Source of the DNA: Escherichia coli | Lineage (GTDB): Bacteria; Pseudomonadota; Gammaproteobacteria; Enterobacterales; Enterobacteriaceae | NCBI RefSeq assembly: GCF_022846255.1 | Contig: NZ_AP025682.1 | Length of the DNA stretch: 64,000 nt | Strand: one strand, 5' to 3' | Shown: positions 812 through 64,000 of the stretch, one piece after another | How positions within the stretch are numbered: position 1 is the stretch's first letter | How the letters are laid out: each line of letters opens with the position of its first letter | Translations under genes and position numbers: made by a program | The notes under the pieces: model-generated | Told to the model about the DNA's origin: nothing | The model's input: only the letters and a program-made list of their open reading frames with translations | The model's database searches: none

Positions 812-1066
812 GTGCAAATGAACACCCCCTCTTTCCATCAACATTTCAGACAGCTTGCGGGAATGAGTCCACTCCGGTATCGGAAATGGCTAAGCCTCAA
901 TGAAGCCAGGCGACTGATGCTGAATGAACATTACGATGTCACCACTGCAGCCTATGCTGTCGGTTACGAAAGCTTATCCCATTTCAGTCGGGAATATTCG
1001 CGGATGTTTGGAGAGTCACCTAAGAGAGATATTACCAGGTTAAGAAAGTCTGTCGGTCAGCTTTAA
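812..1066 (+). pseudogene. yneL: AraC-family regulator remnant (C-terminal helix-turn-helix only)
   Basis: 84-aa ORF is only the AraC-type C-terminal HTH (…LSHFSREYSRMFGESPKRD…); no N-terminal domain in frame upstream; position between hipA and the fimbrial operon as for K-12 yneL. Confidence 0.6.
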
Positions 1067-1292
1067 TAAACCCTACACTTATCTGTTTAGAGCAATTCCG
1101 TGTTAGTTACACCAGGCAAACATTAACTATGGCTAATGATTTATAGCCATATAAACCATTGGTCGCTCTTGACCTTTCCTGACACTTCCCTTGTTCGCAA
1201 TAATATTCTGTTTAGTCACGGTTTATAAATAACATGCATAATGAAATCGTCATGTTATTTAGCGACATAAAATGTCTTTGCAAATACTCTCT

Positions 1293-1320
1293 ACAACAAG
1301 TGCTGCAATAAACTTGTTGT
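1293..1320 (+). promoter_or_regulatory. Inverted repeat (acaacaag…cttgttgt) in the AT-rich leader upstream of the fimbrial major subunit
   Basis: 8-bp arms with 12-bp spacer read directly in sequence; function unknown. Confidence 0.3.
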
Positions 1321-1499
1321 GATTAGGTGTCCTTGTAATTTAAAGATATTATCGTTCTTCGTGAAATGTAATAACCCTGGAAACTATATTCTCAGGGCAA
1401 CTACCAATTAAGAATGATTCTTGTTTTATAAGCAATAACAGAATGACTTAATTGTTAACTCTCTTTATTCAGCTACTTAAATATAAATTTTGGAGAATT

Positions 1500-2063
1500 A
1501 TGAAACTCAAACATGTCGGTATGATTGTCGTTTCTGTATTGGCGATGTCGTCTGCTGCGGTAAGCGCAGCCGAGGGTGATGAATCAGTAACGACCACTGT
1601 TAATGGCGGTGTTATTCATTTTAAAGGTGAAGTGGTAAATGCCGCTTGTGCGATTGATTCAGAATCAATGAACCAAACGGTTGAGCTGGGTCAGGTCCGT
1701 TCTTCTCGTCTGGCTAAAGCGGGTGACCTCAGCTCCGCCGTTGGCTTCAATATCAAGCTGAATGATTGTGATACCAATGTTTCCAGTAATGCAGCTGTTG
1801 CATTCCTGGGTACTACTGTCACCAGTAATGACGATACATTAGCGCTGCAGAGTTTAGCGGCAGGCTCTGCCCAAAATGTTGGTATTCAAATTTTGGACCG
1901 TACGGGGGAGGTATTAATACTTGATGGTGCCACTTTTAGCGCTAAAACTGACTTGATTGATGGCACGAATATATTGCCGTTCCAGGCTCGATATATTGCT
2001 CTCGGGCAGTCAGTAGCTGGTACTGCAAACGCAGATGCGACCTTCAAAGTTCAATATCTATAA
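1500..2063 (+). CDS. F9/Yde-type fimbrial major subunit (FimA-like pilin)
   Basis: Signal peptide [23 protein letters not shown] followed by pilin-like sequence with conserved Cys pair; GGAG ribosome-binding site before ATG 1500; first gene of chaperone-usher operon. Confidence 0.85.
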
Positions 2064-2104
2064 TTCAATCTTAAGGTGGCTATACGTCATCTGAAATTGA
2101 AACA

Positions 2105-2133
2105 GGGTGTGTGTGGCATGGCTACGCACACCC
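2105..2133 (+). terminator. Intra-operon stem-loop after the major pilin gene (possible attenuator)
   Basis: gggtgtgtgt…acgcacaccc hairpin about 40 bp after the pilin stop; such hairpins after the major subunit gene are typical of chaperone-usher operons. Confidence 0.45.
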
Positions 2134-2415
2134 GAGCAATATACCTATGTTCATCTCATTTTTAATGAGGAATGGTTTTTATTTGGGAGCACTATGAAAA
2201 ATCACATAATATCTAAACGATCAATAAACAACAGTAGTTAAACTTGCTGTTATTTAAAATATTTACTTGGTAGCAAGGTTTTCCTATCAAAAGAGAACCA
2301 ACATTTATTACAAACGCATTAAGTCTGGAAACCCGGCGACTCGCCAATGTATTAGCAATATTTACCGATTGTCTGATGTAACGGTTTCCCCGCTTATCCT
2401 CTTAACACATGGAGA

Positions 2416-3135
2416 ATGCATCAGATGCAAACTACGCGTACCCCCTACTCTGTTTCCTTTATGGCGACAGTGTTACTTTTATTGCTCTTTGCTTGCCATA
2501 GCACCATTGCCAACGCAGCTGTCGCACTTGGTGCGACGCGGGTAATTTATCCGGCAAACCAGAAACAGGTTTTATTGCCTGTCACGAATAATGATCCTGC
2601 CAGTGTCTATCTCATTCAGTCATGGATAGAAAATGCGGGTGACCAGAAAGATACCCAGTTTGTCATTACCCCACCGCTTTTTTCCATGCAAGGTAAAAAA
2701 GAGAATACGCTTCGGATAATCAACGCCACTAATCATCAGTTACCAGGCGACCGTGAAAGCCTGTTCTGGGTTAATGTTAAAGCTATCCCTGCTATGGAAA
2801 AAGACCAGAAGAATGAGAATACATTACAGCTGGCAATTATTAGCCGCATAAAAATGTTTTATCGCCCCACGCATCTGGCAATGGCACCTGAAGAAGCGCC
2901 TGCAATGCTTCGGTTTCGTCGCAGCGGTAGCAAATTCACTCTTATTAATCCAACGCCCTACTTCATTACCGTAACGAATATGAAAGCAGGAAATAGCAAT
3001 CTCCCAAACACCATGGTGCCGCCAAAAGGTGAAGTATCGGTGGATATCCCGCATGCGGCAACCGGGGATATCAGTTTTCAGACAATCAATGATTACGGTG
3101 CATTAACTCCGCGTATTAAGGCAACCATGCAGTAA
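2416..3135 (+). CDS. Periplasmic fimbrial chaperone (PapD/FimC-like)
   Basis: N-terminal signal peptide (…LLLLLFACHSTIANA) and chaperone-like sequence; start codon uncertain (2416 to 2461). Confidence 0.8.
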   Translation: MHQMQTTRTPYSVSFMATVLLLLLFACHSTIANAAVALGATRVIYPANQKQVLLPVTNNDPASVYLIQSWIENAGDQKDTQFVITPPLFSMQGKKENTLRIINATNHQLPGDRESLFWVNVKAIPAMEKDQKNENTLQLAIISRIKMFYRPTHLAMAPEEAPAMLRFRRSGSKFTLINPTPYFITVTNMKAGNSNLPNTMVPPKGEVSVDIPHAATGDISFQTINDYGALTPRIKATMQ

Positions 3136-3176
3136 GCCAGTGACCTAATTAATAATAAACTCAATCGGGATTAAAA

Positions 3177-5828
3177 ATGACAGCCTTTCGTGCCGCATTT
3201 AAGGCATATCGTATGCATCAGGTGTTAATACTGCCTCGCTTTGCACGGCTTACCTTTGCCCTTGGCTTAGCAACTGCGGTTTTTCCCGTTGACGCAGAGT
3301 ATTATTTTAATCCACGGTTTTTAAGCAATGACCTTGCTGAATCTGTCGATTTATCTGCCTTTACTAAGGGACGCGAGGCCCCACCTGGTACATATCGGGT
3401 CGACATTTATTTGAACGACGAATTTATGGCTAGTCGGGATATTACTTTTATTGCAGATGATAATAACGCAGATCTCATCCCATGCCTGAGTACAGACCTT
3501 CTTGTCAGTCTTGGCATAAAAAAATCAGCATTATTAGACAACAAGGAACATTCGGCAGAAAAACATGTGCCGGACAACAGCGCATGCACACCACTTCAGG
3601 ATCGTTTGGCTGACGCATCATCTGAGTTTGATGTTGGTCAGCAACATCTGTCACTCTCCGTTCCGCAAATATATGTCGGCAGAATGGCTCGCGGCTATGT
3701 TTCTCCTGATCTGTGGGAAGAAGGAATAAATGCCGGGCTACTAAACTATAGTTTTAATGGTAATTCTATTAATAACCGTAGTAACCATAATGCAGGAAAA
3801 TCCAACTATGCATATTTGAATTTACAGAGTGGCATCAACATTGGTAGTTGGCGACTGCGCGATAACTCAACGTGGAGTTATAACAGTGGGAGTAGCAATT
3901 CATCTGACAGCAATAAATGGCAGCATATCAATACGTCGGCTGAACGTGACATTATTCCGTTACGCTCACGGTTAACAGTGGGTGATAGTTATACCGATGG
4001 CGATATTTTTGACAGTGTGAACTTTCGTGGCCTTAAAATAAATTCAACAGAAGCGATGTTGCCCGATAGCCAACATGGTTTCGCTCCGGTGATTCATGGT
4101 ATTGCTCGTGGCACCGCACAAGTGAGTGTAAAACAGAATGGATACGATGTTTATCAGACTACTGTCCCACCCGGCCCTTTTACTATTGATGATATCAACT
4201 CTGCGGCCAATGGTGGTGATCTGCAAGTAACCATAAAAGAGGCAGACGGCAGTATTCAGACATTATATGTTCCTTATTCGTCTGTTCCGGTTCTCCAACG
4301 TGCTGGATATACGCGTTATGCACTTGCCATGGGGGAATATCGTAGTGGAAATAACCTGCAAAGCACCCCCAAGTTCGTACAAGCAAGCTTGATGCATGGT
4401 CTGAAAGGAAACTGGACACCTTATGGCGGAATGCAAATTGCAGAAGATTATCAGGCCTTCAACCTTGGTATTGGTAAAGATTTAGGACTTTTTGGTGCCT
4501 TTTCTTTCGATATTACGCAGGCCAATACGACACTTGCAGATGACACCCGTCACAGCGGACAATCGGTTAAATCCGTCTACAGCAAATCCTTCTACCAGAC
4601 GGGAACCAATATCCAGGTCGCAGGATATCGCTATTCTACGCAAGGTTTTTATAACTTATCCGACAGTGCATACAGTCGAATGAGTGGTTACACCGTCAAG
4701 CCTCCTACCGGAGACACCAGTGAGCAGACACTATTTATTGATTATTTTAATCTGTTCTACAGTAAGCGTGATCAGGAACAAATAAGCATCTCTCAGCAGC
4801 TTGGAAATTACGGTACGACATTTTTCAGTGCCAGTCGCCAAAGTTACTGGAACACGTCACGCAGCGACCAGCAAATATCATTTGGATTAAATGTGCCGTT
4901 TGGTGATATTACGACTTCGCTGAATTACAGCTATTCCAATAATATATGGCAAAACGATCGGGATCATTTACTCGCTTTTACGCTTAATGTTCCCTTTAGT
5001 CATTGGATGCGTACAGACAGTCAGTCGGCATTTCATAATTCAAACGCCAGTTACAGTATGTCAAACGATTTGAAAGGCGGCATGACCAACCTATCAGGGG
5101 TTTATGGCACTCTGCTACCGGATAATAACCTGAATTATAGTGTTCAGGTCGGTAACACCCAAGGGGGTAATACATCGTCTGGCACCAGTGGTTACAGTTC
5201 TCTTAATTATCGTGGAGCTTACGGTAATACGAATGTCGGTTACAGTCGGAGTGGTGACAGCAGCCAGATTTATTACGGAATGAGTGGTGGGATTATTGCT
5301 CATGCTGATGGCATCACCTTTGGACAGCCGCTGGGCGACACAATGGTTCTGGTTAAGGCTCCTGGCGCTGATAATGTCAAAATAGAGAACCAGACCGGAA
5401 TTCATACCGACTGGCGTGGCTATGCCATATTACCATTTGCGACAGAATATAGAGAAAATCGTGTCGCTCTTAACGCGAATTCCCTTGCAGATAATGTTGA
5501 ACTGGATGAAACCGTAGTCACTGTCATCCCAACTCACGGTGCTATTGCCAGAGCAACATTTAATGCACAAATCGGCGGGAAAGTATTAATGACGTTGAAG
5601 TACGGTAATAAAAGCGTTCCATTCGGTGCAATTGTCACTCACGGAGAGAATAAAAATGGCAGCATTGTCGCGGAAAATGGTCAGGTTTATCTGACTGGAC
5701 TTCCACAGTCAGGGAAATTACAGGTTTCATGGGGCAATGATAAAAACTCAAACTGTATTGTCGATTACAAGCTTCCTGTAGTCTCTCCTGGAACCTTGCT
5801 GAACCAGCAGACAGCAATCTGTCGCTAA
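3177..5828 (+). CDS. ydeT: Fimbrial outer-membrane usher (FimD-like), full length
   Basis: 883-aa ORF with usher hallmarks (YFNPRFL…, GTYRVDIYLN…, C-terminal Cys pair); a pseudogene in K-12 but intact here; exact start uncertain. Confidence 0.85.
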   Translation: MTAFRAAFKAYRMHQVLILPRFARLTFALGLATAVFPVDAEYYFNPRFLSNDLAESVDLSAFTKGREAPPGTYRVDIYLNDEFMASRDITFIADDNNADLIPCLSTDLLVSLGIKKSALLDNKEHSAEKHVPDNSACTPLQDRLADASSEFDVGQQHLSLSVPQIYVGRMARGYVSPDLWEEGINAGLLNYSFNGNSINNRSNHNAGKSNYAYLNLQSGINIGSWRLRDNSTWSYNSGSSNSSDSNKWQHINTSAERDIIPLRSRLTVGDSYTDGDIFDSVNFRGLKINSTEAMLPDSQHGFAPVIHGIARGTAQVSVKQNGYDVYQTTVPPGPFTIDDINSAANGGDLQVTIKEADGSIQTLYVPYSSVPVLQRAGYTRYALAMGEYRSGNNLQSTPKFVQASLMHGLKGNWTPYGGMQIAEDYQAFNLGIGKDLGLFGAFSFDITQANTTLADDTRHSGQSVKSVYSKSFYQTGTNIQVAGYRYSTQGFYNLSDSAYSRMSGYTVKPPTGDTSEQTLFIDYFNLFYSKRDQEQISISQQLGNYGTTFFSASRQSYWNTSRSDQQISFGLNVPFGDITTSLNYSYSNNIWQNDRDHLLAFTLNVPFSHWMRTDSQSAFHNSNASYSMSNDLKGGMTNLSGVYGTLLPDNNLNYSVQVGNTQGGNTSSGTSGYSSLNYRGAYGNTNVGYSRSGDSSQIYYGMSGGIIAHADGITFGQPLGDTMVLVKAPGADNVKIENQTGIHTDWRGYAILPFATEYRENRVALNANSLADNVELDETVVTVIPTHGAIARATFNAQIGGKVLMTLKYGNKSVPFGAIVTHGENKNGSIVAENGQVYLTGLPQSGKLQVSWGNDKNSNCIVDYKLPVVSPGTLLNQQTAICR

Positions 5829-7952: not shown

Positions 7953-8051
7953 AATCCGCGCACAATTGAAGCCAGAGTCTTATTTTTTATATTGAGAATT
8001 ATGTTAATTTAAACCCTATGAGAGATGATGCTTAACTTATCGTATTTATAC

Positions 8052-8110
8052 TACTCTATTATTTAACGATAATAGAGTAAAAATAGTAAGAGAGTAGTCC
8101 CCTACTCTTA
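8052..8110 (+). repeat. Perfect 11-bp inverted repeat (tactctattat-ttaacg-ataatagagta) plus further TACTCT/AGAGTA copies
   Basis: Read directly in the ydeQ-ydeP intergenic region; four copies of the hexamer in alternating orientation. Confidence 0.5.
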
Positions 8111-8200
8111 TATATCCATGTTGACGATAAACCCTATGTATATACTGTGCATCATCGCTATTACAAATCCTAATAATTCATTTCCACACAGGATAAGCAG

Positions 8201-10480
8201 ATGAAGAAAAAAATTGAATCCTACCAGGGAGCTGCCGGTGGTTGGGGTGCTGTTAAATCCGTAGCGAATGCAGTACGTAAGCAGATGGATATACGCCAGG
8301 ATGTTATTGCCATGTTTGACATGAATAAGCCAGAGGGCTTTGACTGTCCGGGATGTGCATGGCCAGATCCTAAGCACAGTGCGTCATTCGACATTTGTGA
8401 AAACGGCGCAAAAGCAATCGCCTGGGAAGCCACGGATAAGCAGGTAAATGCCTCTTTCTTTGCTGAGAATACGGTTCAATCATTACTTACCTGGGGAGAT
8501 CACGAGCTTGAGGCTGCGGGACGTCTCACTCAGCCTTTGAAATATGATGACGTCAGCGACTGTTACAAGCTATTAAGCTGGCAACAAGCTTTCGACGAAA
8601 TTGGCGAACGCCTTCAAAGCTATAGTGATCCCAATCAGGTTGAATTCTATACTTCGGGCCGCACTTCCAATGAAGCTGCCTTTCTTTATCAGCTTTTTGC
8701 CCGTGAATACGGGAGCAATAACTTCCCCGACTGCTCCAACATGTGCCATGAACCGACCAGTGTGGGTTTGGCAGCGAGTATCGGTGTAGGTAAAGGGACC
8801 GTGTTGCTGGAAGACTTTGAGAAATGCGATTTAGTCATTTGCATTGGGCATAACCCTGGTACAAACCACCCTCGCATGTTGACTTCGTTGCGCGCTTTAG
8901 TGAAACGGGGAGCGAAAATGATCGCCATCAATCCTCTACAGGAACGTGGCCTGGAGCGATTTACCGCACCGCAAAACCCGTTTGAAATGCTGACGAACTC
9001 TGAGACTCAGTTGGCCAGTGCCTACTACAACGTGCGCATTGGTGGTGATATGGCGTTGCTCAAGGGGATGATGCGCCTGTTAATTGAGCGCGATGATGCT
9101 GCAAGCGCCGCAGGTCGGCCCTCATTGCTGGATGACGAATTTATTCAAACGCATACCGTCGGCTTTGACGAGCTACGCCGTGACGTGCTCAATTCCGAGT
9201 GGAAAGATATCGAACGTATTTCTGGATTAAGTCAGACTCAAATCGCCGAACTGGCTGATGCATATGCCGCTGCCGAACGCACCATTATCTGTTACGGAAT
9301 GGGGATCACTCAGCACGAACATGGTACCCAGAATGTACAGCAACTGGTCAATCTGCTGTTGATGAAAGGTAACATTGGCAAGCCTGGTGCGGGTATCTGC
9401 CCACTACGAGGTCACTCTAATGTACAGGGCGACCGAACCGTCGGTATCACCGAGAAACCGTCTGCAGAGTTTCTGGCTCGCCTGGGTGAGCGCTATGGTT
9501 TCACCCCACCTCATGCACCTGGACATGCTGCAATTGCCAGCATGCAAGCAATATGTACGGGGCAGGCTCGCGCATTGATCTGCATGGGGGGCAACTTTGC
9601 ACTGGCAATGCCAGATCGGGAAGCGAGCGCTGTACCGTTAACGCAATTAGATCTGGCGGTACACGTTGCCACTAAGCTTAACCGCTCTCATCTGCTGACC
9701 GCACGGCATAGCTATATTCTGCCGGTTCTGGGACGTAGCGAGATTGACATGCAAAAAAGCGGTGCGCAGGCGGTAACCGTTGAAGATTCAATGTCGATGA
9801 TTCATGCCTCGCGTGGTGTGTTAAAACCCGCCGGTGTAATGCTGAAATCAGAGTGTGCAGTGGTCGCGGGAATCGCGCAAGCAGCACTACCCCAGAGCGT
9901 GGTAGCCTGGGAGTATCTGGTGGAAGATTATGATCGCATTCGCAATGACATTGAAGCTGTGCTGCCAGAGTTTGCCGACTATAACCAGCGCATCCGTCAT
10001 CCTGGTGGTTTTCACCTGATAAACGCAGCAGCTGAAAGGCGCTGGATGACGTCGTCAGGTAAGGCTAATTTCATTACCAGTAAAGGGCTGTTAGAAGATC
10101 CCTCTTCAGCGTTTAACAGTAAGCTGGTCATGGCGACAGTACGCAGTCACGATCAGTACAACACGACGATTTATGGTATGGATGATCGCTATCGAGGGGT
10201 ATTCGGTCAACGAGATGTGGTCTTTATGAGTGCTAAACAAGCTAAAATTTGCCGTGTAAAAAACGGCGAAAGAGTTAATCTTATTGCACTCACGCCAGAC
10301 GGTAAACGTAGCTCACGCCGCATGGATAGATTAAAAGTGGTCATTTACCCTATGGCTGACCGCTCACTGGTGACCTATTTTCCAGAATCGAATCACATGC
10401 TAACACTTGATAACCACGATCCATTAAGTGGCATTCCTGGCTATAAAAGTATTCCGGTTGAATTAGAACCATCAAATTAA
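8201..10480 (+). CDS. ydeP: Acid-resistance molybdopterin oxidoreductase (formate dehydrogenase-like, FdhF family)
   Basis: 759-aa ORF matching YdeP length and sequence; no in-frame TGA. Confidence 0.92.
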
Positions 10481-46838: not shown

Positions 46839-47110
46839 AATAATTGTCGGGTCTACGGCCCGGCAGTTAATCAGATAAATTCTGACAATATTAAAAAATA
46901 AATTTCAAATACCAGAAAGTCATTTTAGTTACATTTAGTAACACATATCTGTCTGTTTATTCCACATTCTGCCCCCGCAGTTACGCTTTCTTATCTATTC
47001 TTCTAATCAGCACTTCACCTGATTCATCCTTAATTCTAATAACTGGCTATTGCGCCTTACCTCCTGTTTTGTCTTTTTTTCATTACCAATGTGTGCATGT
47101 GAGGAACAAT

Positions 47111-55326: not shown

Positions 55327-56220
55327 ATGAAACCGCAGGTTTACCACGTCGATGCTTTTACCTCTCAACCGTTTCGCGGCAATTCTGCCGGTGTTGTTTT
55401 CCCCGCCGATAATCTCAGTGAAGCGCAAATGCAGCTTATCGCCCGCGAGTTAGGTCATTCGGAAACTGCTTTTCTGCTGCACAGAGACGACAGCGATGTG
55501 CGCATCCGCTACTTTACGCCAACGGTTGAAGTTCCGATTTGTGGTCACGCGACAGTAGCTGCGCACTATGTACGTGCAAAGGTGTTAGGTTTAGGAAATT
55601 GCACGGTCTGGCAAACATCGCTGGCAGGAAAACATCGCGTGACTATCGAAAAGCACAACGATGATTATCGTATTTCGCTGGAACAAGGTACGCCGGGCTT
55701 TGAGCCACCGCTGGAAGGTGAAACACGTGCGGCGATTATCAACGCGCTTCATCTCACTGAAGACGATATTCTGCCAGGCTTGCCAATTCAGGTGGCAACC
55801 ACAGGACACTCAAAAGTGATGATCCCACTGAAACCGGAAGTGGATATCGACGCCCTTTCGCCTGACCTTAATGCGCTGACCGCTATCAGCAAACAGATTG
55901 GCTGCAATGGTTTCTTCCCGTTCCAGATCCGCCCAGACAAAAACGAAACCGACGGTCGTATGTTCTCGCCTGCCATTGGTATTGTGGAAGATCCGGTGAC
56001 TGGCAATGCCAATGGCCCGATGGGTGCATGGTTAGTACATCACAACGTATTGCCCCACGATGGCAACGTGTTGCGTGTTAAAGGCCATCAGGGGCGCGCA
56101 TTAGGGCGTGACGGCGTGATTGAAGTGACGGTGACAATTCGTGATAACCAACCGGAGAAAGTCACCATTTCTGGCGTGGCGGTGATTTTGTTTCATGCCG
56201 AATGGGCAATTGAACTCTGA
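55327..56220 (+). CDS. yddE: PhzF-family isomerase-like protein
   Basis: 297 aa. Confidence 0.9.
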   Translation: MKPQVYHVDAFTSQPFRGNSAGVVFPADNLSEAQMQLIARELGHSETAFLLHRDDSDVRIRYFTPTVEVPICGHATVAAHYVRAKVLGLGNCTVWQTSLAGKHRVTIEKHNDDYRISLEQGTPGFEPPLEGETRAAIINALHLTEDDILPGLPIQVATTGHSKVMIPLKPEVDIDALSPDLNALTAISKQIGCNGFFPFQIRPDKNETDGRMFSPAIGIVEDPVTGNANGPMGAWLVHHNVLPHDGNVLRVKGHQGRALGRDGVIEVTVTIRDNQPEKVTISGVAVILFHAEWAIEL

Positions 56221-56227
56221 AACCGTT

Positions 56228-56303
56228 GCCTGATGCGCTTCGCTTATCAGGTCTACAACCGGGCTAATGTAGGCCGGATAAGGCGTTTACGCCACATCCG
56301 GCA
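56228..56303. repeat. REP (repetitive extragenic palindromic) element pair between yddE and nhoA
   Basis: gcctgatgcgcttcgcttatcaggtctac and tgtaggccggataaggcgtttacgccacatccggca match REP consensus. Confidence 0.75.
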
Positions 56304-56315
56304 ACCTGACATAAA

Positions 56316-57161
56316 TTATTTTCCCGCCTCCGGGTGCGTATCAAACGCCGCCATCACCAGCGCTAACTCATCCACAGTAAAGCCATGTTTCGCATCATCT
56401 ACGCCCAGACCAAACTGTTCCTGCATCACGGCATATAACGACGCCACATCTGGTAGATTTCGCTGCTCAACTGCGTGCCCATTTTCATAATGGGTAAAAT
56501 GAAAATTGGTCAGCGTTAGCTTGCCACCGTCCGGCAAATGGCGACACATCAGCAAATGATGGCGAAAATGCGACTGCGGCCAGTGCGCCGACCAGAAATT
56601 GCCCATCACATAATCGCTTTGTTGCTGCTCGCAGAGATCAAAACGGTACATCGACTGCCAGTGCTGATGATGATTAAACTGCAACACCCAATCATCACCC
56701 TCCTGCAACAACCGATACTCTCCGTGTGGCGTGGTTTGCATGATATCCGGCATTAAACGAATCGGCGCGGTTAGCGTCTGCCCACCGAAACCGACATCAG
56801 CAATCCATTTTTCCCCTTCCAGTTCCACCAACAGCAAACGATGGGTGCGCGGCGGTAATGCTGGCGGATTTGATAACACTACGCGCCCTAACAAGCTGCG
56901 AACGTTAAACCCCAGCTCGCGTAACACCCGCTCAAACACGCCATTCTGCTCAAAACAGTAACCACCACGACGGGCTATCACCAGTTTCTCTTCCAGCGAT
57001 TGATCATCAAGCTGTATTTCCCTCGGCAGCAAAACGTCGAGATTTTCAAACGGAATGGTGCAATTGTGTTTCAGGTGCAATGCACGCAGCGTATCAATAT
57101 TGGCCGCAGCAGCTCCCAACCAGTTAATACGGGCAAAATAATGATTCAGAATGGGCGTCAT
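56316..57161 (-). CDS. nhoA: Arylamine N-acetyltransferase (N-hydroxyarylamine O-acetyltransferase)
   Basis: 281 aa, MTPILNHYFARINW…; catalytic Cys context GGYCFEQN. Confidence 0.93.
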   Translation of the reverse strand: MTPILNHYFARINWLGAAAANIDTLRALHLKHNCTIPFENLDVLLPREIQLDDQSLEEKLVIARRGGYCFEQNGVFERVLRELGFNVRSLLGRVVLSNPPALPPRTHRLLLVELEGEKWIADVGFGGQTLTAPIRLMPDIMQTTPHGEYRLLQEGDDWVLQFNHHQHWQSMYRFDLCEQQQSDYVMGNFWSAHWPQSHFRHHLLMCRHLPDGGKLTLTNFHFTHYENGHAVEQRNLPDVASLYAVMQEQFGLGVDDAKHGFTVDELALVMAAFDTHPEAGK

Positions 57162-57335
57162 CAGGCGTTTCCCTTAGTGGTTTTCTCAACTTATAACCTG
57201 GAATAGACGCCGCACTGGCTATTTTGTGCGATCGCGGACATGCATCACGTTCGCAAATCGCCAATCCCGTTAATTTCGTTACTTATTGCGTTACGAGCTA
57301 CGCTTTTAAAACACCCTTCATAGCGAGGCGATATC

Positions 57336-57905
57336 GTGAGCCGATTCATCCCTGTCGAATTACACCATGCCAGCCGTCTGTTAAATCATGGCCCAACTGT
57401 CTTGATCACCAGTTTCGATGAGCAATCCCAGCGGCGTAACATTATGGCAGCAGCCTGGTCAATGCCGGTGGAGTTTGAACCGCCACGCGTGGCGATTGTG
57501 GTAGATAAATCGACATGGACCAGGGAGTTGATTGAACGTAACGGTAAGTTTGGCATCGTTATCCCGGGCGTTGCGGCGACTAACTGGACGTGGGCGGTGG
57601 GAAGTGTGTCGGGGCGTGATGAAGATAAGTTTAATTGCTATGGTATTCCGGTTGTGAAAGGTCCGGTGCTTGGTTTGCCGCTGGTCGAGGAAAAATGTCT
57701 GGCGTGGATGGAGTGTCGCCTGCTACCTGCAACTTCCGCGCAAGAAAAATACGATACGCTATTTGGCGAAGTGGTATCTGCAGCGGCAGACGCACGAGTA
57801 TTTGTCGAAGGCCGCTGGCAGTTTGATGATGACAAACTCAATACGTTGCATCATTTAGGTGCTGGCACGTTTGTTACCAGCGGCAAGCGTGTTACGGCAG
57901 GTTAA
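57336..57905 (+). CDS. yddH: Flavin-reductase-like domain protein
   Basis: 189 aa. Confidence 0.88.
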   Translation: MSRFIPVELHHASRLLNHGPTVLITSFDEQSQRRNIMAAAWSMPVEFEPPRVAIVVDKSTWTRELIERNGKFGIVIPGVAATNWTWAVGSVSGRDEDKFNCYGIPVVKGPVLGLPLVEEKCLAWMECRLLPATSAQEKYDTLFGEVVSAAADARVFVEGRWQFDDDKLNTLHHLGAGTFVTSGKRVTAG

Positions 57906-57908
57906 GCA

Positions 57909-58136
57909 TTACATGCTGTAACCGGGTTTCTTTATCAAAGCCTCCATTTGGGGCTCGACTTCGGCATCCCAGATAGCTTGCCAAGATTCTGGTTGAATCT
58001 GCTGTAGAGAAATGCTTATCGAGCTATCTTTACTGTTCAGATGGCGAATAATAACGTCGGTAATATCTGCAGCAAGTGCTGCTTTTTGTTGTTCGTCCAG
58101 TTCACGCGGAAAACATTTAATGTCTATGTGCGGCAT
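57909..58136 (-). CDS. pptA: Tautomerase (4-oxalocrotonate tautomerase family)
   Basis: 75 aa from [18 protein letters not shown]… with N-terminal Pro after Met. Confidence 0.88.
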
Positions 58137-58441
58137 GATTGTGCTCCTTTTGAAAGATGTCAGTAAAATTAACACACGTTGTGAATGTCGTGTGTCCGGT
58201 AATGCGTTTTTACGGCAATAATGCCTACTTGAAATTGTACATATTTGTACTACACACTTTTAAATAAAGCGCCAATGAAAACGTTAACTTGCAGAATATA
58301 TTCTTCGCCAACATGCCATTAAGAAAACATCAAGTTCCCGGCTTGCCAATTTGTTAACGCCCATTATAGTTATTCTTGCCCTCACTAAAAATTTTCATCC
58401 GTAATTACCCCCAATAAAAATCCATTCTGGAGACGCTTAAG

Positions 58442-60418
58442 ATGCAGCTTAATCATATCGTTAAAAGTCTGCTAATAACGGGATTATTCACCACCAGTTC
58501 TTTACCTCTCCTCGCGGCGGAAGCTCCTAAAGACGCCACCGCAGCCACGCAACAAGCAAACAATTTACTCTACAACCAGTTGCCGTTTGCCGATAACACT
58601 GACTTTACTGATGCCCATAAAGGTTTTATTGCCCCTATCCCTCAAGACGTGATTAAGGGCGAACAAGGGAATGTTATCTGGGATCCACAACATTACGCTT
58701 TTATCAAAGAAGGCGATAAAGCCCCTGATACGGTGAATCCGAGTTTATGGCGTCAGGCGCAACTGATAAATATCAGCGGGTTATTCGAAGTAACTGAAGG
58801 TGTCTATCAGATTCGCAATCTCGATCTATCAAATATGACCATCATTGAAGGCAAAGAGGGTATTACCGTCGTTGATCCCCTTGTTTCAGCAGAAACAGCC
58901 AAAGTGGGTATGGATCTCTATTACAAAAATCGCGGCAAAAAACCGGTAGTGGCGGTTATCTATACACACAGTCATGTCGATCACTACGGTGGTGTTCGTG
59001 GCGTAATTGATGAAGCTGACGTTAAATCAGGCAAAGTTAAAATCTATGCGCCAGCCGGATTTTTGGAGGAAGCCGTTTCCGAAAACATCATGGCTGGCAA
59101 TGTTATGAGCCGACGAGCCAGTTATATGTATGGCAACTTATTGAAACCTGATGTTAAAGGCCAGGTGGGGGCTGGACTGGGAACGACTACTTCAGCAGGA
59201 ACAGTCACGTTGATTGCTCCTACTAACTACATCACCAAAACCGGACAAATAGAAACTATTGACGGGTTGACTTATGATTTCCTGATGGCGCCAGGTTCTG
59301 AAGCGCCTTCTGAAATGCTGTGGTTTATTGAAGAAAAGAAACTGATCGAAACCGCTGAAGATGTCACGCACACCCTTCATAACACCTATTCGCTGCGTGG
59401 GGCTAAAATTCGCCAACCGCTGCCGTGGTCAAAATATATTAATGAAGCTCTCAATTTGTGGGGTGATAAAGCCGAGATTATTCTCGCTCAACATCACTGG
59501 CCAACCTGGGGCAACGATAACGTGGTCAAACTGCTTAAAAGCCAGCGTGATTTGTATCGTTACATCAATGATCAAACTCTGCGCATGGCTAATCAAGGGA
59601 TGACCCGTGATGAAATTGCCGCAAACTTTAAACTGCCCTCTTCACTGGCTAACACCTGGGCGAATCGCGGCTATTACGGTTCGGTAAGTCATGACGTGAA
59701 AGCAACTTACGTGCTTTATCTCGGCTGGTTTGATGGTAACCCCGCGACGCTTGATGAACTGCCGCCAGAAGAAGGCGCAAAAAAATTCGTCGAGTATATG
59801 GGCGGTGCTGATGCCATTTTACAGAAAGCCAAACAGGATTATGACCAGGGTAATTTCCGCTGGGTTGCCCAAGTTGTTAGTAAGGTGGTGTTTGCCGATC
59901 CAAACAACCAGGCAGCGAGAGATCTGGAAGCTGATGCGCTTGAGCAGTTAGGCTATCAGGCTGAATCTGGGCCGTGGCGTAATTTCTATCTCACTGGTGC
60001 ACAGGAATTGCGTAATGGCGTACAAAAATTACCAACACCAAATACTGCCAGCCCAGACACCGTGCGTGCGATGACGCCGGAGATGTTCTTTGATTATCTT
60101 GCCGTCCATATTAATGGTGAGAAAGCGGCAGATGCCAAAACCGTGTTGAATTTCGATTTTGGTGAAGATGGCGGCACCTATAAAGTGGAGCTTGAAAATG
60201 GTGTTCTCAATCATACCGCTGGTGTAGAGGCTTCGGATGCTGATGCCACTATCACTCTGTCTCGTGATGTATTGAACAAAATTGTACTGAAAGAAGAGAC
60301 GCTGAAAGAAGCCACGGCCAAAGGAGATGTCAAAATTACTGGCAATGCGGAAAAACTCAACGAGCTGTTAGGTTATATGGATAATTTTGAATTTTGGTTC
60401 AATATAGTGACACCATAA
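58442..60418 (+). CDS. Secreted alkyl/aryl-sulfatase of the metallo-beta-lactamase fold (SdsA1/YjcS-like)
   Basis: 658 aa; signal peptide (…TTSSLPLLAAEAP); MBL zinc motif THSHVDHYGG; not at this position in K-12 as far as I recall. Confidence 0.8.
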   Translation: MQLNHIVKSLLITGLFTTSSLPLLAAEAPKDATAATQQANNLLYNQLPFADNTDFTDAHKGFIAPIPQDVIKGEQGNVIWDPQHYAFIKEGDKAPDTVNPSLWRQAQLINISGLFEVTEGVYQIRNLDLSNMTIIEGKEGITVVDPLVSAETAKVGMDLYYKNRGKKPVVAVIYTHSHVDHYGGVRGVIDEADVKSGKVKIYAPAGFLEEAVSENIMAGNVMSRRASYMYGNLLKPDVKGQVGAGLGTTTSAGTVTLIAPTNYITKTGQIETIDGLTYDFLMAPGSEAPSEMLWFIEEKKLIETAEDVTHTLHNTYSLRGAKIRQPLPWSKYINEALNLWGDKAEIILAQHHWPTWGNDNVVKLLKSQRDLYRYINDQTLRMANQGMTRDEIAANFKLPSSLANTWANRGYYGSVSHDVKATYVLYLGWFDGNPATLDELPPEEGAKKFVEYMGGADAILQKAKQDYDQGNFRWVAQVVSKVVFADPNNQAARDLEADALEQLGYQAESGPWRNFYLTGAQELRNGVQKLPTPNTASPDTVRAMTPEMFFDYLAVHINGEKAADAKTVLNFDFGEDGGTYKVELENGVLNHTAGVEASDADATITLSRDVLNKIVLKEETLKEATAKGDVKITGNAEKLNELLGYMDNFEFWFNIVTP

Positions 60419-60432
60419 ATTTACTGCATACC

Positions 60433-60456
60433 GGGCAGGTATCCTGCCCTTTTTTG
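60433..60456 (+). terminator. Rho-independent terminator after the alkylsulfatase gene
   Basis: gggcagg-tat-cctgccc followed by tttttt. Confidence 0.75.
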
Positions 60457-60464
60457 GTTAAAAA

Positions 60465-61562
60465 ATGGCTGAACGAAGAAAAACGCATCACTCATGGAAA
60501 ACCCGCCGCGATATGGTTATTCGCGGCATGACGATTAGTTTGCCATGGTTTGCTTTTATCAATGTCAGTTTTGCATTGATAATTTTGCTGCGCCGTGTTC
60601 TGTTTAATGACCTTACTCCACCCTGGTTAAATGAAAAAAGCCTTATACATTCTATTGATATATCTGCAACGGGTATTCTGCTGATTTGCAGTGGTTTACT
60701 ACTCATCCCTCGGCAAAAAACATTACCTATCCAGGTGCTATTAGTTGCCCTGAGCCTGCTATGGTCATGGTGTAGTTATCACTTTATTGCGTACTGGACG
60801 CTGCAGTTTGCTTATCCACTATGTGTATTATTAATGCTTAGTGGCGTTGTCGCACTTTATTTCCATACCCCATCATTGCTCGCATTTGTCATTCCCTTAT
60901 GGTTCACCACTCCAATAGCGAGTCTTATGCTTAATCAACAGATCAATATTCATTTTGCTGTTGTATGGTGTATTTTTTCACTGGCGCTATATGGTGGGCG
61001 ACTCATTTTGTTACGTTGGTTTGAAGAAGCATGGGTACAAAACAGTTATAACAACCAGTTAATTAATCGCCTTGATGCATTAGCACATCGCGATCCTTTA
61101 ACTGGGATAGCAAACCGACGTGCAATGAACAGTATCTTACACGACGCGATGGATAACGGCGGGTCATTTGCTCTTATTATGCTGGATGTCGATTTTTTTA
61201 AACGTTACAACGACACTTACGGGCATCCTGCTGGGGATCGTTGTCTAATACAAGTTGCCGACGCTCTACAGCGTTCAACTCGCCAGTCGGAGGATGTTGT
61301 TGTCCGTTATGGTGGCGAAGAGTTTGCCATCATACTTTTTAATGCAACATTGCCGGAAGCAGAGACGGTAGCAGCCAGAGTGAAGCAAGAACTTAAACTG
61401 GCAGCTATCCCACATCAGGCATCTGCTGTTAATGCATTCGTTACGGTTAGTCAGGGGATTACCTGTTCTGCTCCCGCAAAAACGGCTGAACAAATTATTT
61501 CAGATGCCGACGCTGCGTTATACCGGGCGAAAGAAAGTGGGCGAAATCGATGGGCTTTATAA
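60465..61562 (+). CDS. Membrane-anchored diguanylate cyclase (multi-TM N-terminal domain + GGDEF domain)
   Basis: ~200 aa hydrophobic N-terminus with 5-6 TM segments, then GGDEF hallmarks: DPLTGIANRR, RYGGEEF, ADAALYRAKESGRNR; AT-rich; start codon uncertain. Confidence 0.8.
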   Translation: MAERRKTHHSWKTRRDMVIRGMTISLPWFAFINVSFALIILLRRVLFNDLTPPWLNEKSLIHSIDISATGILLICSGLLLIPRQKTLPIQVLLVALSLLWSWCSYHFIAYWTLQFAYPLCVLLMLSGVVALYFHTPSLLAFVIPLWFTTPIASLMLNQQINIHFAVVWCIFSLALYGGRLILLRWFEEAWVQNSYNNQLINRLDALAHRDPLTGIANRRAMNSILHDAMDNGGSFALIMLDVDFFKRYNDTYGHPAGDRCLIQVADALQRSTRQSEDVVVRYGGEEFAIILFNATLPEAETVAARVKQELKLAAIPHQASAVNAFVTVSQGITCSAPAKTAEQIISDADAALYRAKESGRNRWAL

Positions 61563-61635
61563 GCATTAGGGGACTGGACAGATTACGTCTCTCCTCGCTT
61601 AACAAGGGCTGACGGAGGGTAATAATTGTCTATAG

Positions 61636-62187
61636 CTATCTTCTTAGCGATGTCTTTCTGGTATCACATTGGATCGGTGCAATTATTTTTCCTTTAATAC
61701 CCATTATGTTAAGAAATTCAGAACCAGCTGTAATCTCATTGTTTTTTTCATTCGTCTTGATCTTCCAAGGAATCTGACTGTGCATTATTGAGAACACACT
61801 AATAACGTGAATCGCTCCCTTGCGACGACTCTTGTCATAAGAGTACCGGAGCGTTTTTCCATCAATTGCAATGACGTCTTTATCATCTGAAGAATGGCAG
61901 TCAAGCATCCAGTTAATAAAGCACTCATGAAATTTTTCAGGACTGATACAGGATACAACTCTGGCAATGGTATCGTGAACAGGAATACCATTATCAAAAT
62001 CACCATATTGCTTCAAAAAATCGAGATGTGTTTCCCCAAAATCCTCTATATCTTCCCAGCCTTCTGCACCCGAAATAACGACACAAATAGTCAACAGTAG
62101 AATATCCGATAATTTATGCTCCACTTTCCAGGCTTGTCTGTAATCGGGGATAATAGAAATATGTTCCATCAATTTTTTAAGTTCCAT
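61636..62187 (-). mobile_element. ISAs1-family (H-repeat, YdcC/YhhI-like) transposase, 5' fragment only (about codons 1-190, frameshifted near its end)
   Basis: [63 protein letters not shown]… is the H-repeat protein N-terminus as I recall it; frame breaks after …IKGKII and similarity ends about 75 bp before the DGC stop. Confidence 0.8.
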
Positions 62188-62360
62188 TTTGTTCTCCTTA
62201 ATTATGTAAAGAGTATTTGATCATGTATAAGCAATAAAAAACAGCTTTAGGTAATGAGGAATATCTCAATTTTTAAACATAAAATGCGAATTATTTAGTA
62301 CAAAAAAGCAGCGTTACGTGATCTTTCCATGGAAAAGAGAGTAATACACTGATTTTTAAC

Positions 62361-62395
62361 GCAGATTGCCAGTGCTACCAACACTGACAATCTGC
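62361..62395 (+). promoter_or_regulatory. 14-bp imperfect inverted repeat upstream of the symE-like gene (candidate operator)
   Basis: gcagattgccagtg-N7-cactgacaatctgc, one mismatch, about 35 bp upstream of ATG 62428. Confidence 0.35.
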
Positions 62396-62427
62396 TCACC
62401 ACAAGCAACTAACAGAGGTAGTTAATC

Positions 62428-62747
62428 ATGGCTGAACACGATATTACGCCAGAAGTCGCCATTTCCAAAACACAGCGCCGCTATAAAGTCGGCTATGTCA
62501 GAGCCCGCCACATAAACAGCAAACCACGTACTACTCACGACACCCCAGCCTGAACCTTAAGGGCGACTGGCTGAAAGAGGCCGGATTTGATACCGGACGG
62601 GGTGTCACGGTGAAGATTTCGGAGGGGTGCCTGACCATCATCGCTGACAGTGACGAGGTGCAGGAACTGCGGGAGGAACTTTATCAGGTTAAACAGGTGG
62701 TTAAGGGGATGCGGAACGGGATGTTTAGTGTGCTGAACGAGAATTAA
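62428..62747 (+). pseudogene. SymE-family (type I toxin-like, AbrB-fold) gene with an apparent -1 frameshift
   Basis: Frame A gives MAEHDITPEVAISKTQRRYKVGYVRARHINSKPRTTHDTPA then TGA at 62551; frame -1 continues LNLKGDWLKEAGFDTGRGVTVKISEGCLTII…, resembling the SymE core (ITLKGQWLEAAGF…EGC) as I recall it. Confidence 0.6.
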
Positions 62748-62797
62748 ATAATAAAAAAGCCGGGGAGATTTAAAATCTTCCCGGCTTTCTTTATCAT

Positions 62798-63100
62798 CTA
62801 AAAAGGTAATAATCCTCTAATAGGAGAAAATTTTGTAATATCAATACCTTGTAATTTAAAGTAATTAAAAGCATCTTCTATATTGGAAAACGCACTAATT
62901 TCTTCAGTTGCATAATCTTCGAACACTTCCATTTTATTTTCTGGTATTTTGAAAAAATAGGTATTGTATTTTTCATCCTGTTTTTTAATGGCATATTGGA
63001 AAAAATAACTTTCACCATTTATTTCCTTTATCTCATCAAAACCTCTAACCTTACCATTCTCTATAGCAACAATTAATTTTTCAATAGACAAATCAACCAT
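62798..63100 (-). CDS. Small acidic protein, candidate immunity protein
   Basis: 100 aa, D/E-rich; start overlaps the stop of the upstream basic ORF by 8 bp; AT-rich codon usage. Confidence 0.5.
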   Translation of the reverse strand: MVDLSIEKLIVAIENGKVRGFDEIKEINGESYFFQYAIKKQDEKYNTYFFKIPENKMEVFEDYATEEISAFSNIEDAFNYFKLQGIDITKFSPIRGLLPF

Positions 63101-63440
63101 CTATATCTATCCTCACCATTGTCCCATCAGAACGTTTAATATTTATATGAGGCAAAGAACCATGCCCTGTGCCTTTATGGTCATCATGACCATATACACG
63201 ACCAGTATTAGAATCAATAGGGTAATCTTTCCTATAACGGACAGTACCATCTCTTTTCTTAAATTGTTCCATCTTATGTTTTTTTCTAATACCGGCGGCA
63301 TCCTGCGAACTGATCCCTCTTACTTTTTGAGCATCAGGAAAGGCCTCCATCAATAAATCATGGGCTTCCTGTTTTGATTTAACTGTGACAACGGTTCCTT
63401 GAGGCCCCAGGGCAAGATTACGAAAGCCCGCTCCCCGCAA
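63093..63440 (-). CDS. Small basic His-rich protein, candidate orphan toxin domain (possibly HNH/EndoVII-type nuclease tip)
   Basis: 115 aa, K/R-rich with [21 protein letters not shown]; no Rhs DPxGL or CdiA VENN junction visible; its start overlaps the ISAs1 transposase stop, so the N-terminal part may not be genuine. Confidence 0.45.
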
Positions 63441-64000
63441 GGACTGACGCCAGATAGTTTCTGTCCATGGCTGCTTTTCGCATCTTACGTCTTAACCCTG
63501 CCTTGAATACCTTATCATTCGTCAAAATATTAATAGCGATGTGCCGTATCCCTGAAAATAATTCTGCTGCATTTCCTCTTCTTATTTTGCAGTCGTCTTC
63601 ATTCATTACCACGTCCAGACGCCAGTGCAGCTTATTCTCCACGTGCCAGTGGTTTCGGATTGCTGTGGCGAACTTCTCTGCGGTTAAATCAGCAGAACTG
63701 ATATAATATCTGACCGTCATTTCTGGCTATTTCTTTTGTTCTGCTATTATGGACCGAAAGGAGACTGCCACGCATAATTTCTTCAGTCCTTTCCATTCAA
63801 ACGTGAAATCAATAAGTTCATCAGGGACATCGCAAACAATATGAAGACGGATTTCTTCTCTGCCGTGACTTTTTTCACTAATTGCGTAACTGTCATGCTC
63901 TGGATTATTCAATTCTTTCAGCGGAAATTTTTCCTCGAAGGCTTTATTTAGCCGCCCCTGGTTTCCTTTTACAGCGAATAAATAATCACCTCCCTGTTTT
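63418..64000 (-). mobile_element. ISAs1-family (H-repeat) transposase, 3' portion, interrupted by an in-frame TAG; continues beyond the window
   Basis: Reverse-strand translation from the window edge reads [43 protein letters not shown]…AEQKK-(TAG at 63727..63729)[45 protein letters not shown]…. Confidence 0.8.

Follow-up and report, generated by a model that had tools for sequence, protein, structure and literature searches.

The open reading frame at 60465..61562 (plus strand, ATG to TAA, 365 aa) of the window, the 64,000-nucleotide stretch of Escherichia coli DNA analysed here, matches dgcY, a pan-genome gene predicted to encode a diguanylate cyclase (DGC) with a MASE5 membrane domain and a GGDEF catalytic domain. 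Our overall explanation, to which we assign a probability of roughly 85%, is that this frame is dgcY, that its product works by the mechanism of its family, that it occupies an old chromosomal site at which an Rhs/ISAs1 element inserted, and that deletions removed it from K-12 and other strains.

Correspondence to dgcY

The protein and WP_000236738.1, a GGDEF protein of strain SMS-3-5, are identical at 344 of 349 positions (98.6%), and tblastn with the longer frame against SMS-3-5 gave 99.2% identity over 363 residues. The gene for WP_000236738.1 directly follows an alkyl sulfatase gene, in the order pptA-sulfatase-GGDEF-yncG. The two loci share this upstream sulfatase, the pptA-yddH-nhoA flank and the MASE5-GGDEF architecture, whereas the protein of the window ends in AL rather than EK and its gene is followed by an ISAs1 fragment rather than by yncG. 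The abstract of a 2016 survey by Povolotsky and Hengge reportedly names 'two membrane-associated DGCs (DgcX and DgcY)'. A passage of the SalmoNet2 preprint (10.1101/2021.12.20.473597), citing Povolotsky & Hengge 2016, describes dgcY in SMS-3-5 and CE10 together with the alkyl-sulfatase EcSMS35_1714. It is on this secondary citation and the match of the locus that we use the name, and by sequence and locus the frame corresponds to dgcY, an already named accessory c-di-GMP synthase of non-K-12 E. coli. Literature searches on DgcY and on MASE5 brought up no work on the enzymatic activity, expression or phenotype of DgcY. NCBIfam holds no model specific to the product; the generic GGDEF domain model alone scored above its cut-off, and scores against the named DGC equivalogs fell far below theirs.

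The choice of start codon is ambiguous. The RefSeq annotation uses an internal ATG at 60513 in the same frame, giving 349 aa. The N-terminal extension is conserved in homologues from Citrobacter, Enterobacter, Lelliottia, Salmonella and Hafnia, and in those from Leclercia and genome L094 only the equivalent of M17 is usable as a start.

The gene is present in 443 of 5426 complete E. coli genomes (about 8%), one copy each. Sensitive blastn recovered the same 443 genomes as megablast and no divergent alleles within E. coli.

Predicted architecture, catalytic site and mechanism

Both Pfam profiles were matched significantly and in the order MASE5 then GGDEF. The MASE5 domain spans residues 25–206 (60537..61082, plus strand; PF17178, E = 7.5e-44) and is also supported by hydropathy, with six hydrophobic segments of about 19 residues each between residues 24 and 183, and by an AlphaFold2 model (mean pLDDT 86) containing helices 14–41, 55–80, 86–109, 116–131, 135–157 and 162–207. 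In the model, the periplasmic loops are very short and TM6 is predicted to form one continuous helix, 162–207, that reaches into the cytoplasm. The residues W28, W100, L123, Y132, P144, G178, L182, W185, F186 and A189 of this domain are invariant among 74 homologues. The GGDEF domain follows at residues 207–362 (61083..61550, plus strand; PF00990, E = 1.9e-48) and is supported by sequence and fold matches in the PDB, the sequence matches being ImcA, WspR, SiaD, PleD and DgcZ. Thus the accessory, membrane-bound GGDEF protein with a multi-TM N-terminus anticipated in the preliminary description is borne out, with MASE5 and its six TM helices as the type of the N-terminal sensor.

The GGEEF motif, which that description had also read as intact, lies at residues 283–287 (61311..61325, plus strand; read directly) and is invariant in the 74 homologues, as are D241, D243, N249, D250, H254, D258, R281, K356 and R360. 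The GGDEF domain aligns without gaps to WspR and ImcA, such that the metal- and GTP-binding residues D241, D243, N249, D250, D258, K356 and R360 coincide with theirs. With its A-site and metal/GTP residues intact, DgcY has the sequence hallmarks of a catalytically competent DGC. The inhibitory-site position is non-canonical. The sequence reads R273-Q-S-E-D277-VVVRY-GGEEF, so the canonical RxxD five residues before GG(D/E)EF is absent; by alignment with WspR, whose RSSD pairs without a gap with QSED of DgcY, this position (61281..61295, plus strand) holds RxxxD. R273 and D277 are invariant across the MASE5-GGDEF family, and the family-wide presence of RxxxD instead of RxxD appears to be a modest new point.

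ImcA (PA1851) of Pseudomonas aeruginosa is the best match to DgcY among solved structures in both sequence and fold, and aligns over its full length (PDB 8WCN; Foldseek with the DgcY model, E 1e-13, TM-score 0.41, full-length match). Its six TM helices lead, as in DgcY, into a GGDEF domain, although overall identity is 23–24% and only DgcY is assigned a MASE5 domain. ImcA has DGC activity, for which it depends on its TM region (PMC10904736). It is controlled by a partner protein, IsmP, whereas no such partner is seen adjoining dgcY. Closer relatives are EL-703 of E. ludwigii, DGC3134 of Pantoea YR343 and the Salmonella protein 'YreP', which have the same Pfam architecture at 48–53% identity (PMC7232144, PMC8294551) and the same invariant residues, RxxxD included. 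The E. ludwigii, Pantoea and Salmonella genes lie at loci other than that of dgcY and often lack a neighbouring sulfatase.

From this family we infer how DgcY would work. It would sit in the inner membrane with its basic N-terminus in the cytoplasm, and because the periplasmic loops are almost nil any signal is probably sensed inside the bilayer or at the membrane surface. TM6 would extend as one long helix into the cytoplasmic GGDEF domain, and this stalk would set the register of the two GGDEF domains which, each loaded with GTP-Mg2+ and joined by dimerisation, would form c-di-GMP in the manner of other diguanylate cyclases. Given the family-wide replacement of RxxD by RxxxD, feedback through a classical I-site may be missing or changed. 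The product would join the c-di-GMP pool, with matrix production raised and motility lowered.

Pairing with an alkyl sulfatase

Upstream of dgcY, at 58442..60418 (plus strand), lies a gene for an alkyl/aryl-sulfatase of the SdsA1/YjcS type, periplasmic in character (658 aa, with an N-terminal signal-like sequence; Pfam Lactamase_B, Alkyl_sulf_dimr and Alkyl_sulf_C). It is 98.5% identical to its SMS-3-5 counterpart and 85% identical to those of Salmonella and L094, and is full-length in 439 of the 5426 E. coli genomes. A peptide-pattern scan of species-representative genomes yielded few enterobacterial relatives of DgcY and many unrelated GGDEF proteins, and the context of the relatives was taken from exact-protein look-ups, genus by genus. 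The sulfatase/MASE5-GGDEF pair was found in five genera, in which it occupies three different loci. The sulfatase precedes the cyclase in tandem at the pptA locus of Escherichia and at the tynA-feaB locus of Lelliottia, Leclercia and L094; genome L099 retains a 50-aa sulfatase remnant before its DGC, and in Salmonella, at the ttcA locus, the two genes are divergently arranged. This recurrent pairing is a modest new point.

One explanation of the pairing is that sulfatase and DgcY form a single functional module, in which MASE5 would respond to alkyl sulfates, their fatty-alcohol products or membrane perturbation and so couple surfactant to c-di-GMP-driven aggregation. The recurrence of the pair would fit this, as would the conservation of a hairpin between the two genes (see below) and the fact that the genes remain adjacent while the sulfatases are 85% conserved and the DGCs only 48–51% identical. 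There is also a precedent in the SDS-induced, SiaD-dependent aggregation of P. aeruginosa (PMC4768041). However, many members of the family lack a sulfatase neighbour, including those of Citrobacter, Hafnia, Pantoea, Aeromonas and most Enterobacter, and adjacency may merely mirror the shared ancestry of close genera. We hold the module as a tentative and rather unlikely reading. Its most specific form would be a conserved two-gene sensory module of Enterobacteriaceae, in which the loop-less MASE5 domain detects alkyl-sulfate surfactants, their alcohol products or membrane perturbation, c-di-GMP made free of RxxD feedback drives aggregation, and the conserved hairpin sets the expression ratio of the two genes; this version is less likely still.

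Expression of dgcY

A candidate sigma-70-like promoter, the best match upstream of the sulfatase gene (TTGCCA-16-TATAGT, 10 of 12 consensus positions), is located at 58343..58370 (plus strand), from which the sulfatase, and perhaps dgcY with it, might be transcribed. Because promoter-like sites are no more frequent in this region than shuffles would predict, the candidate is weak. In the spacer that separates the sulfatase gene from dgcY is a GC-rich hairpin, GGGCAGG-TAT-CCTGCCC (60433..60449, plus strand), followed by TTTTTT. Its centroid energy of -13.5 kcal/mol is not significant against shuffles (z = -1.1). Hairpins of differing sequence occur at the equivalent position in SMS-3-5, in the Escherichia genomes L003 and L005, and in Lelliottia, Leclercia and L094, and by its shape, its T-run and this positional conservation the element looks like a terminator or attenuator. 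No convincing dedicated promoter for dgcY was found in the 46-nt spacer and the hairpin ends 15 nt before the start codon, so expression of dgcY may be low or dependent on read-through.

Some GGDEF proteins act as c-di-GMP-independent scaffolds. It could be argued that dgcY is likewise non-enzymatic or that, although intact, it is silent behind the sulfatase terminator; the hairpin with its T-run and the lack of a convincing promoter would suit the latter, the last two codons have been changed by the junction with the Rhs element, and repeated losses within E. coli show the gene to be dispensable. Against this, the catalytic residues are all invariant, 439 genomes carry the gene at 99% identity or above, and it is full-length in 436. 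The two C-terminal residues vary naturally within the family, and a MASE5-GGEEF gene of Pantoea has a promoter that works in biofilm and on roots (PMC8294551). A silent or non-enzymatic DgcY is improbable.

An old site and its loss from K-12

The window at 56000–58225 and 63406–64000 is contiguous in K-12 (L002 10964|10965; blastn of the window), such that the interval 58226..63405, with the sulfatase gene, dgcY, an ISAs1 fragment, a symE-like gene and small Rhs-associated ORFs, is absent from MG1655. The gene order there is ydcC(ISAs1)-pptA-yddH-nhoA, with a gap of 100 bp between ydcC and pptA, and blastn found no K-12 counterpart of 58226–61636. Homology to SMS-3-5 stops 8 nt before the dgcY stop codon, at 61554..61555, which is the left junction of the Rhs/ISAs1 insertion and the point at which the final residues change. 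The 5' fragment of an ISAs1-family element that follows (61637..62306, minus strand) shares 91% identity with the 5' portion of K-12 ydcC; its transposase ORF (61636–62187, N-terminal 183 aa; NCBIfam NF033564, E 3.4e-47) lies 74 nt past the dgcY stop. This fragment is part of the Rhs element inserted downstream of dgcY. The 3' part of a second ISAs1 copy, the ydcC orthologue, occupies 63406..64000 (minus strand) and runs out of the window. It is 97.6% identical to the 3' half of K-12 ydcC, the ORF at 63418–63720 is 99% identical to the YdcC C-terminus, and its 3' end is the K-12 deletion breakpoint.

The preliminary description had correctly noted the lack of a K-12 counterpart beside pptA, the abutting truncated ISAs1 and the AT-richness of the gene, moderate as this is (43.7% GC, GC3 37%, against 47.9% GC in the whole window), and had taken the last two as signs of horizontal acquisition, a conclusion that the evidence fails to support. 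A recent islet, with sulfatase and dgcY brought in with or by the adjacent ISAs1/Rhs element, would be consistent with a GC content of 43.7–45.9%, with an ISAs1 fragment so close downstream, with the restriction of dgcY to 8% of complete E. coli genomes, and with the location of the sulfatase/DGC pair elsewhere in the genomes of Salmonella and the Lelliottia/Leclercia group, from which it follows that the pair has moved at some time. Yet SMS-3-5 and another Escherichia species (L003) carry pptA-sulfatase-dgcY-yncG without any mobile element, and blastn of the window against K-12 revealed no IS on the pptA side. The site is common to four Escherichia lineages, in two of which (L004 and L005) dgcY adjoins rearranged downstream DNA, and in Citrobacter the stretch from yddH to yncG contains a homologue (yddH-DGC-pptA-yncG in two genomes). 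Accordingly, dgcY does not carry the marks of IS-borne or genomic-island cargo, namely absence from the syntenic site in relatives and mobile ends on both sides. The arrangements in which the IS stands alone are those without the two genes, and there are two distinct breakpoints, each flush with ydcC. The first is the K-12-type junction, found in 2371 genomes, and K-12 lost sulfatase and dgcY by this deletion flush with the ISAs1 end; the second, an independent ISAs1-adjacent deletion, leaves 62–70 nt of the sulfatase gene beside ydcC in about 88 genomes. Among genomes that retain dgcY, the form with the ISAs1-side junction is commoner (344) than the mobile-element-free form with the yncG junction (87).

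Within the gene, GC is 40.6% in the MASE5 half and 47.7% in the GGDEF half, and low GC is common to all the Escherichia lineages examined, with a GC3 of 0.37 in Escherichia dgcY versus 0.69 in the Citrobacter homologue at the corresponding site; in other genera the GC of the homologue fits that of its host. The AT-richness points at most to an old event and not to a recent arrival, and it is conceivable that a foreign allele replaced the gene long ago in the Escherichia ancestor. A recent import is highly improbable because the site, between pptA/yddH and yncG, is an old, conserved chromosomal slot, and because the K-12 loss is an IS-linked deletion. In the history that we favour, the Rhs/ISAs1 element entered the very 3' end of dgcY, and later ISAs1-adjacent deletions took sulfatase and dgcY from K-12 and many other strains.

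Distinction from DgcX

The preliminary description was right to suggest a strain-specific cyclase of non-K-12 E. coli, the match being to dgcY, but not in its suggestion of a DgcX-type enzyme. DgcX, reported in more than 1150 Escherichia strains (PMC10459773), is known from EAEC/O104:H4, always adjoins lambdoid prophage DNA, keeps the RxxD I-site intact, and carries at its N-terminus a MASE4 domain of about 270 aa, with eight predicted TM helices, which it shares with DgcT and CdgI (PMC4287979, PMC10459773). DgcX and DgcY are alike as accessory, membrane-anchored GGEEF cyclases without a K-12 copy (PMC4287979), but an identity of the two has next to no probability and we reject it on domain type (Pfam gives MASE5, with six TM helices in about 185 aa), I-site (RQSED), context (pptA and sulfatase on one side and yncG or the Rhs element on the other, with no prophage neighbour) and the absence of nucleotide similarity, sensitive blastn of dgcY against the 5426 genomes giving one locus only and no weaker class of match.

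Implications

Only two extra diguanylate cyclases are on record for the E. coli pan-genome. DgcY is one of them, and its correct placement guards against confusion with the virulence-associated DgcX. K-12, the reference for c-di-GMP work, represents the derived state at this locus, while about 8% of sequenced E. coli are predicted to keep an additional c-di-GMP input. The dosC cyclase gene of the strain studied here is internally deleted; with dgcY present, its complement of cyclases therefore differs from that of K-12 in both directions. The alkyl sulfatase found repeatedly beside such cyclases offers a lead to the signal sensed by MASE5. If the sulfatase and DgcY do form a module, MASE5 would have its first signal, and the module would constitute an enterobacterial counterpart of the SDS-induced, SiaD-dependent aggregation of Pseudomonas.

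Identity and domain architecture of the cyclase

The open reading frame at 60465–61562 (+ strand) is uninterrupted and encodes a 365 aa protein, for which RefSeq places the start at an internal ATG in the same frame (60513), giving 349 aa. Pfam places MASE5, a membrane-associated sensor domain, at residues 25–206 (E = 7.5e-44) and GGDEF directly after it at residues 207–362 (E = 1.9e-48). Six hydrophobic segments appear in the hydropathy profile within residues 24–183; the loops are very short and the N-terminal tail is strongly basic (7 K/R among the first 24 residues). An AlphaFold2 model built from an alignment of 74 homologues (mean pLDDT 86) likewise contains six helices, the last of which (162–207) is unbroken from the membrane to the GGDEF domain. 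The multi-TM N-terminus and intact GGEEF motif (residues 283–287; 61311–61325) of the preliminary description are therefore both present, and the sensor type is MASE5. Either start codon may be the one used: the open frame of the 16-residue N-terminal extension is kept in several genera, with a common Trp and basic residues, and in Leclercia and L094 (a compared MASE5-GGDEF locus) a start is possible only at the M17 equivalent.

We identify this gene as dgcY, a name which rests on a secondary citation together with a locus match. The SalmoNet2 preprint (10.1101/2021.12.20.473597), citing Povolotsky & Hengge 2016, reports E. coli dgcY from SMS-3-5 and CE10 alongside the alkyl-sulfatase EcSMS35_1714. 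The SMS-3-5 locus order is nhoA-yddH-pptA-alkyl sulfatase-GGDEF-yncG-ansP, and its GGDEF protein matches the window protein at 344/349 residues (99.2% across 363 residues for the longer frame by tblastn). The upstream gene (58442–60418; Pfam domains Lactamase_B, Alkyl_sulf_dimr and Alkyl_sulf_C) is the same alkyl sulfatase as in SMS-3-5, at 98.5% identity. The preliminary description was thus right to propose an accessory cyclase reported outside K-12, but not in suggesting a DgcX-type enzyme. DgcX combines GGDEF with MASE4, an N-terminal domain of ~270 aa common to DgcT and CdgI, retains an intact RxxD I-site and always adjoins lambdoid prophage DNA (PMC4287979, PMC10459773), whereas all three features are missing here. 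As dgcY, the gene has been named before; the exact protein occurs on >1000 contigs in public data, under no more specific annotation than 'GGDEF domain-containing protein' or 'diguanylate cyclase'.

Catalytic site and I-site

Residues D241, D243, N249, D250, H254, D258, R281, the GGEEF motif, K356 and R360 are invariant in 74 family members and correspond to metal, GTP or phosphate binders in characterised cyclases. Alignment of the GGDEF domain with WspR and ImcA needs no gaps. Among solved structures, the top full-length fold match is also ImcA (8WCN, P. aeruginosa); like the predicted DgcY architecture it is a six-TM GGDEF cyclase, active in vitro and requiring its TM region (PMC10904736). 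The canonical RxxD I-site is missing in DgcY, with RSSD of WspR aligning to QSED. The arginine instead lies one residue further upstream (R273-x-x-x-D277), a spacing which differs from that of DgcX and is invariant across the MASE5-GGDEF family. A MASE5-GGEEF protein of Pantoea YR343 carries no RxxD flag in a published listing (PMC8294551).

Origin of dgcY

The preliminary description noted AT-richness and a truncated ISAs1 neighbour and read them as signs of horizontal acquisition. Both observations hold. At 43.7% GC (GC3 37%) the gene falls below the window value of 47.9%, mainly through its TM-coding half (40.6% vs 47.7% for the GGDEF half), and an N-terminal ISAs1 transposase fragment of 183 aa is encoded on the minus strand, 74 nt past the stop codon. 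Recent acquisition is nevertheless unsupported, given a conserved site in other Escherichia and Citrobacter and low GC throughout Escherichia. The order nhoA-yddH-pptA-(sulfatase)-dgcY recurs in representatives of three other Escherichia species (92%, 96% and 79% protein identity), one ending in EK with yncG next to it and another ending in AL ahead of the ISAs1 junction, and two Citrobacter genomes have nhoA-yddH-DGC-pptA-yncG with the cyclase at 64%. This synteny indicates that dgcY has long resided between yddH and yncG, and that the neighbouring ISAs1 did not bring it in but reflects damage done to the locus afterwards.

The ancestor of Escherichia may have undergone an ancient allele replacement, as all Escherichia copies are low in GC (0.43–0.44) while the composition of homologues in Citrobacter, Salmonella, Enterobacter, Hafnia and Pantoea follows that of their hosts. 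Divergence within Escherichia is faster in the sensor half than in the catalytic half (71% vs 91% in one lineage). In L005, another Escherichia species, the cyclase (8001–9092) is 79% identical to window DgcY and the sulfatase, nhoA and yddH are 95–96% identical; a related allele, P0004, has its divergence concentrated in the MASE5 half. This pattern points to rapid or diversifying evolution of the sensor domain, or to an exchange of alleles.

Locus states and loss from K-12

Single copies of dgcY are carried by 443 of 5426 complete E. coli genomes, 439 of them at ≥99% identity, and full-length sulfatase is found in 439; a sensitive blastn search of the same genomes for a divergent dgcY class added none. 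The gene abuts yncG directly, without mobile DNA, in 87 genomes (SMS-3-5 type) and is followed by the ISAs1 fragment in 344 (window type). In 2371 genomes pptA adjoins ydcC with neither sulfatase nor dgcY (K-12 type), while in about 88, including MS1718, the first 62–70 nt of the sulfatase adjoin ydcC. In MG1655 the ISAs1 gene ydcC lies 100 bp from pptA, and there is no cyclase at that position, as the preliminary description had stated.

Homology between the window and SMS-3-5 stops at 61554, 8 nt ahead of the dgcY stop codon, and the last two residues change from EK (SMS-3-5) to AL (window); an Rhs/ISAs1 element was therefore inserted at the extreme end of dgcY. K-12 aligns to window 56000–58225 and then directly to 63406–64000, which holds the 3' half of a second, ydcC-orthologous ISAs1 copy, so K-12 corresponds to the window arrangement minus 58226–63405. 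This deletion is flush with the ISAs1 end. The MS1718-type stub (L095 5001–5062) ends at another breakpoint, which is likewise flush with ydcC. The locus has thus been deleted next to ISAs1 at least twice independently, and dgcY was lost from K-12 rather than gained by this strain.

The region 3' of dgcY (61555–64000) holds the ISAs1 5' fragment, a symE-like toxin region (~62421–62785), two small ORFs (62798–63100 and 63093–63440) and the second ISAs1 copy. This whole 2.4-kb stretch is contiguous in 0/5426 complete genomes; its best matches cover positions 1–1854 of the stretch and then run on into an Rhs core gene. Insertion of the second ISAs1 into the Rhs tip, exactly at the start of the K-12 deletion, seems to have followed.

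Pairing with the alkyl sulfatase

Co-occurrence of the sulfatase and dgcY in E. coli is already described in the literature (10.1101/2021.12.20.473597). At the pptA locus of Escherichia the two genes stand in tandem, as they do between tynA and feaB in Lelliottia jeotgali, Leclercia adecarboxylata and L094; a further locus, L099, has a 50-aa sulfatase remnant ahead of the cyclase. Between paired genera the sulfatase is 85% conserved and the cyclase only 48–51% identical. The pair is missing in Citrobacter, most Enterobacter, Hafnia, Pantoea and Aeromonas. In Salmonella it is divergent and located at ttcA (L085/L086 3736–7128, between uspF-side genes and ttcA), the position that the Rac prophage occupies in E. 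coli K-12. Enrichment of the Salmonella pair in typhoidal and invasive serovars is reported in a preprint.

The sulfatase stop and the dgcY start are separated by a GC-rich hairpin with a T-run (60433–60449), and no convincing dgcY promoter was found in the 46-nt spacer. Hairpins of differing sequence occupy the same position in other Escherichia, Lelliottia, Leclercia and a related genome. Together, these features suggest co-transcription with attenuated read-through. The position is kept across four genera (L096 3940–3980, L097 3972–3998, L094 5045–5066), with a clear T-run only in Escherichia. Folding energy was not significant against shuffled sequences.

SDS-induced, SiaD-dependent aggregation of P. 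aeruginosa (PMC4768041) provides a precedent for surfactant signalling through c-di-GMP. By this analogy, a specific surfactant-sensing role for DgcY and the sulfatase is conceivable, though we consider it unlikely.

Other features of the window

The dosC gene is internally deleted (27480–27724; deletion point about 27517–27560), 43 bp replacing ~1.26 kb of an O169:H41 genome, with only a short stub of the 5' end and a GGDEF remnant of 72 C-terminal aa left, so the strain lacks DosC and has DgcY. The adjacent dosP is intact (27725–30148; 807 aa). At 46915–46925, ~4.1 kb of the O169:H41 comparison genome is missing; there, this stretch carries leucine-rich-repeat genes and an ompC-like porin, flanked by yddG and narU. 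ORFs of 176, 203, 239 and 883 aa occupy 1–5828, the first 5.3 kb of which lies upstream of the compared segment; the 883-aa ORF is probably a fimbrial usher of a ydeQRST-type cluster.

Proposed mechanism

We propose that DgcY acts as a dimeric inner-membrane cyclase in which the loop-less MASE5 bundle would sense a signal inside or at the membrane, relayed to the GGDEF pair through the conserved juxtamembrane G178-R-x-x-L-x-x-W-F-x-x-A-W190 and the stalk helix. Classical product inhibition may be absent or altered, and the output would feed a c-di-GMP pool favouring matrix production over motility. For a gene already named, the analysis adds a corrected identity for the window ORF, a reconstruction of the K-12 deletion, a family-wide RxxxD variant and a conserved pairing with the sulfatase.
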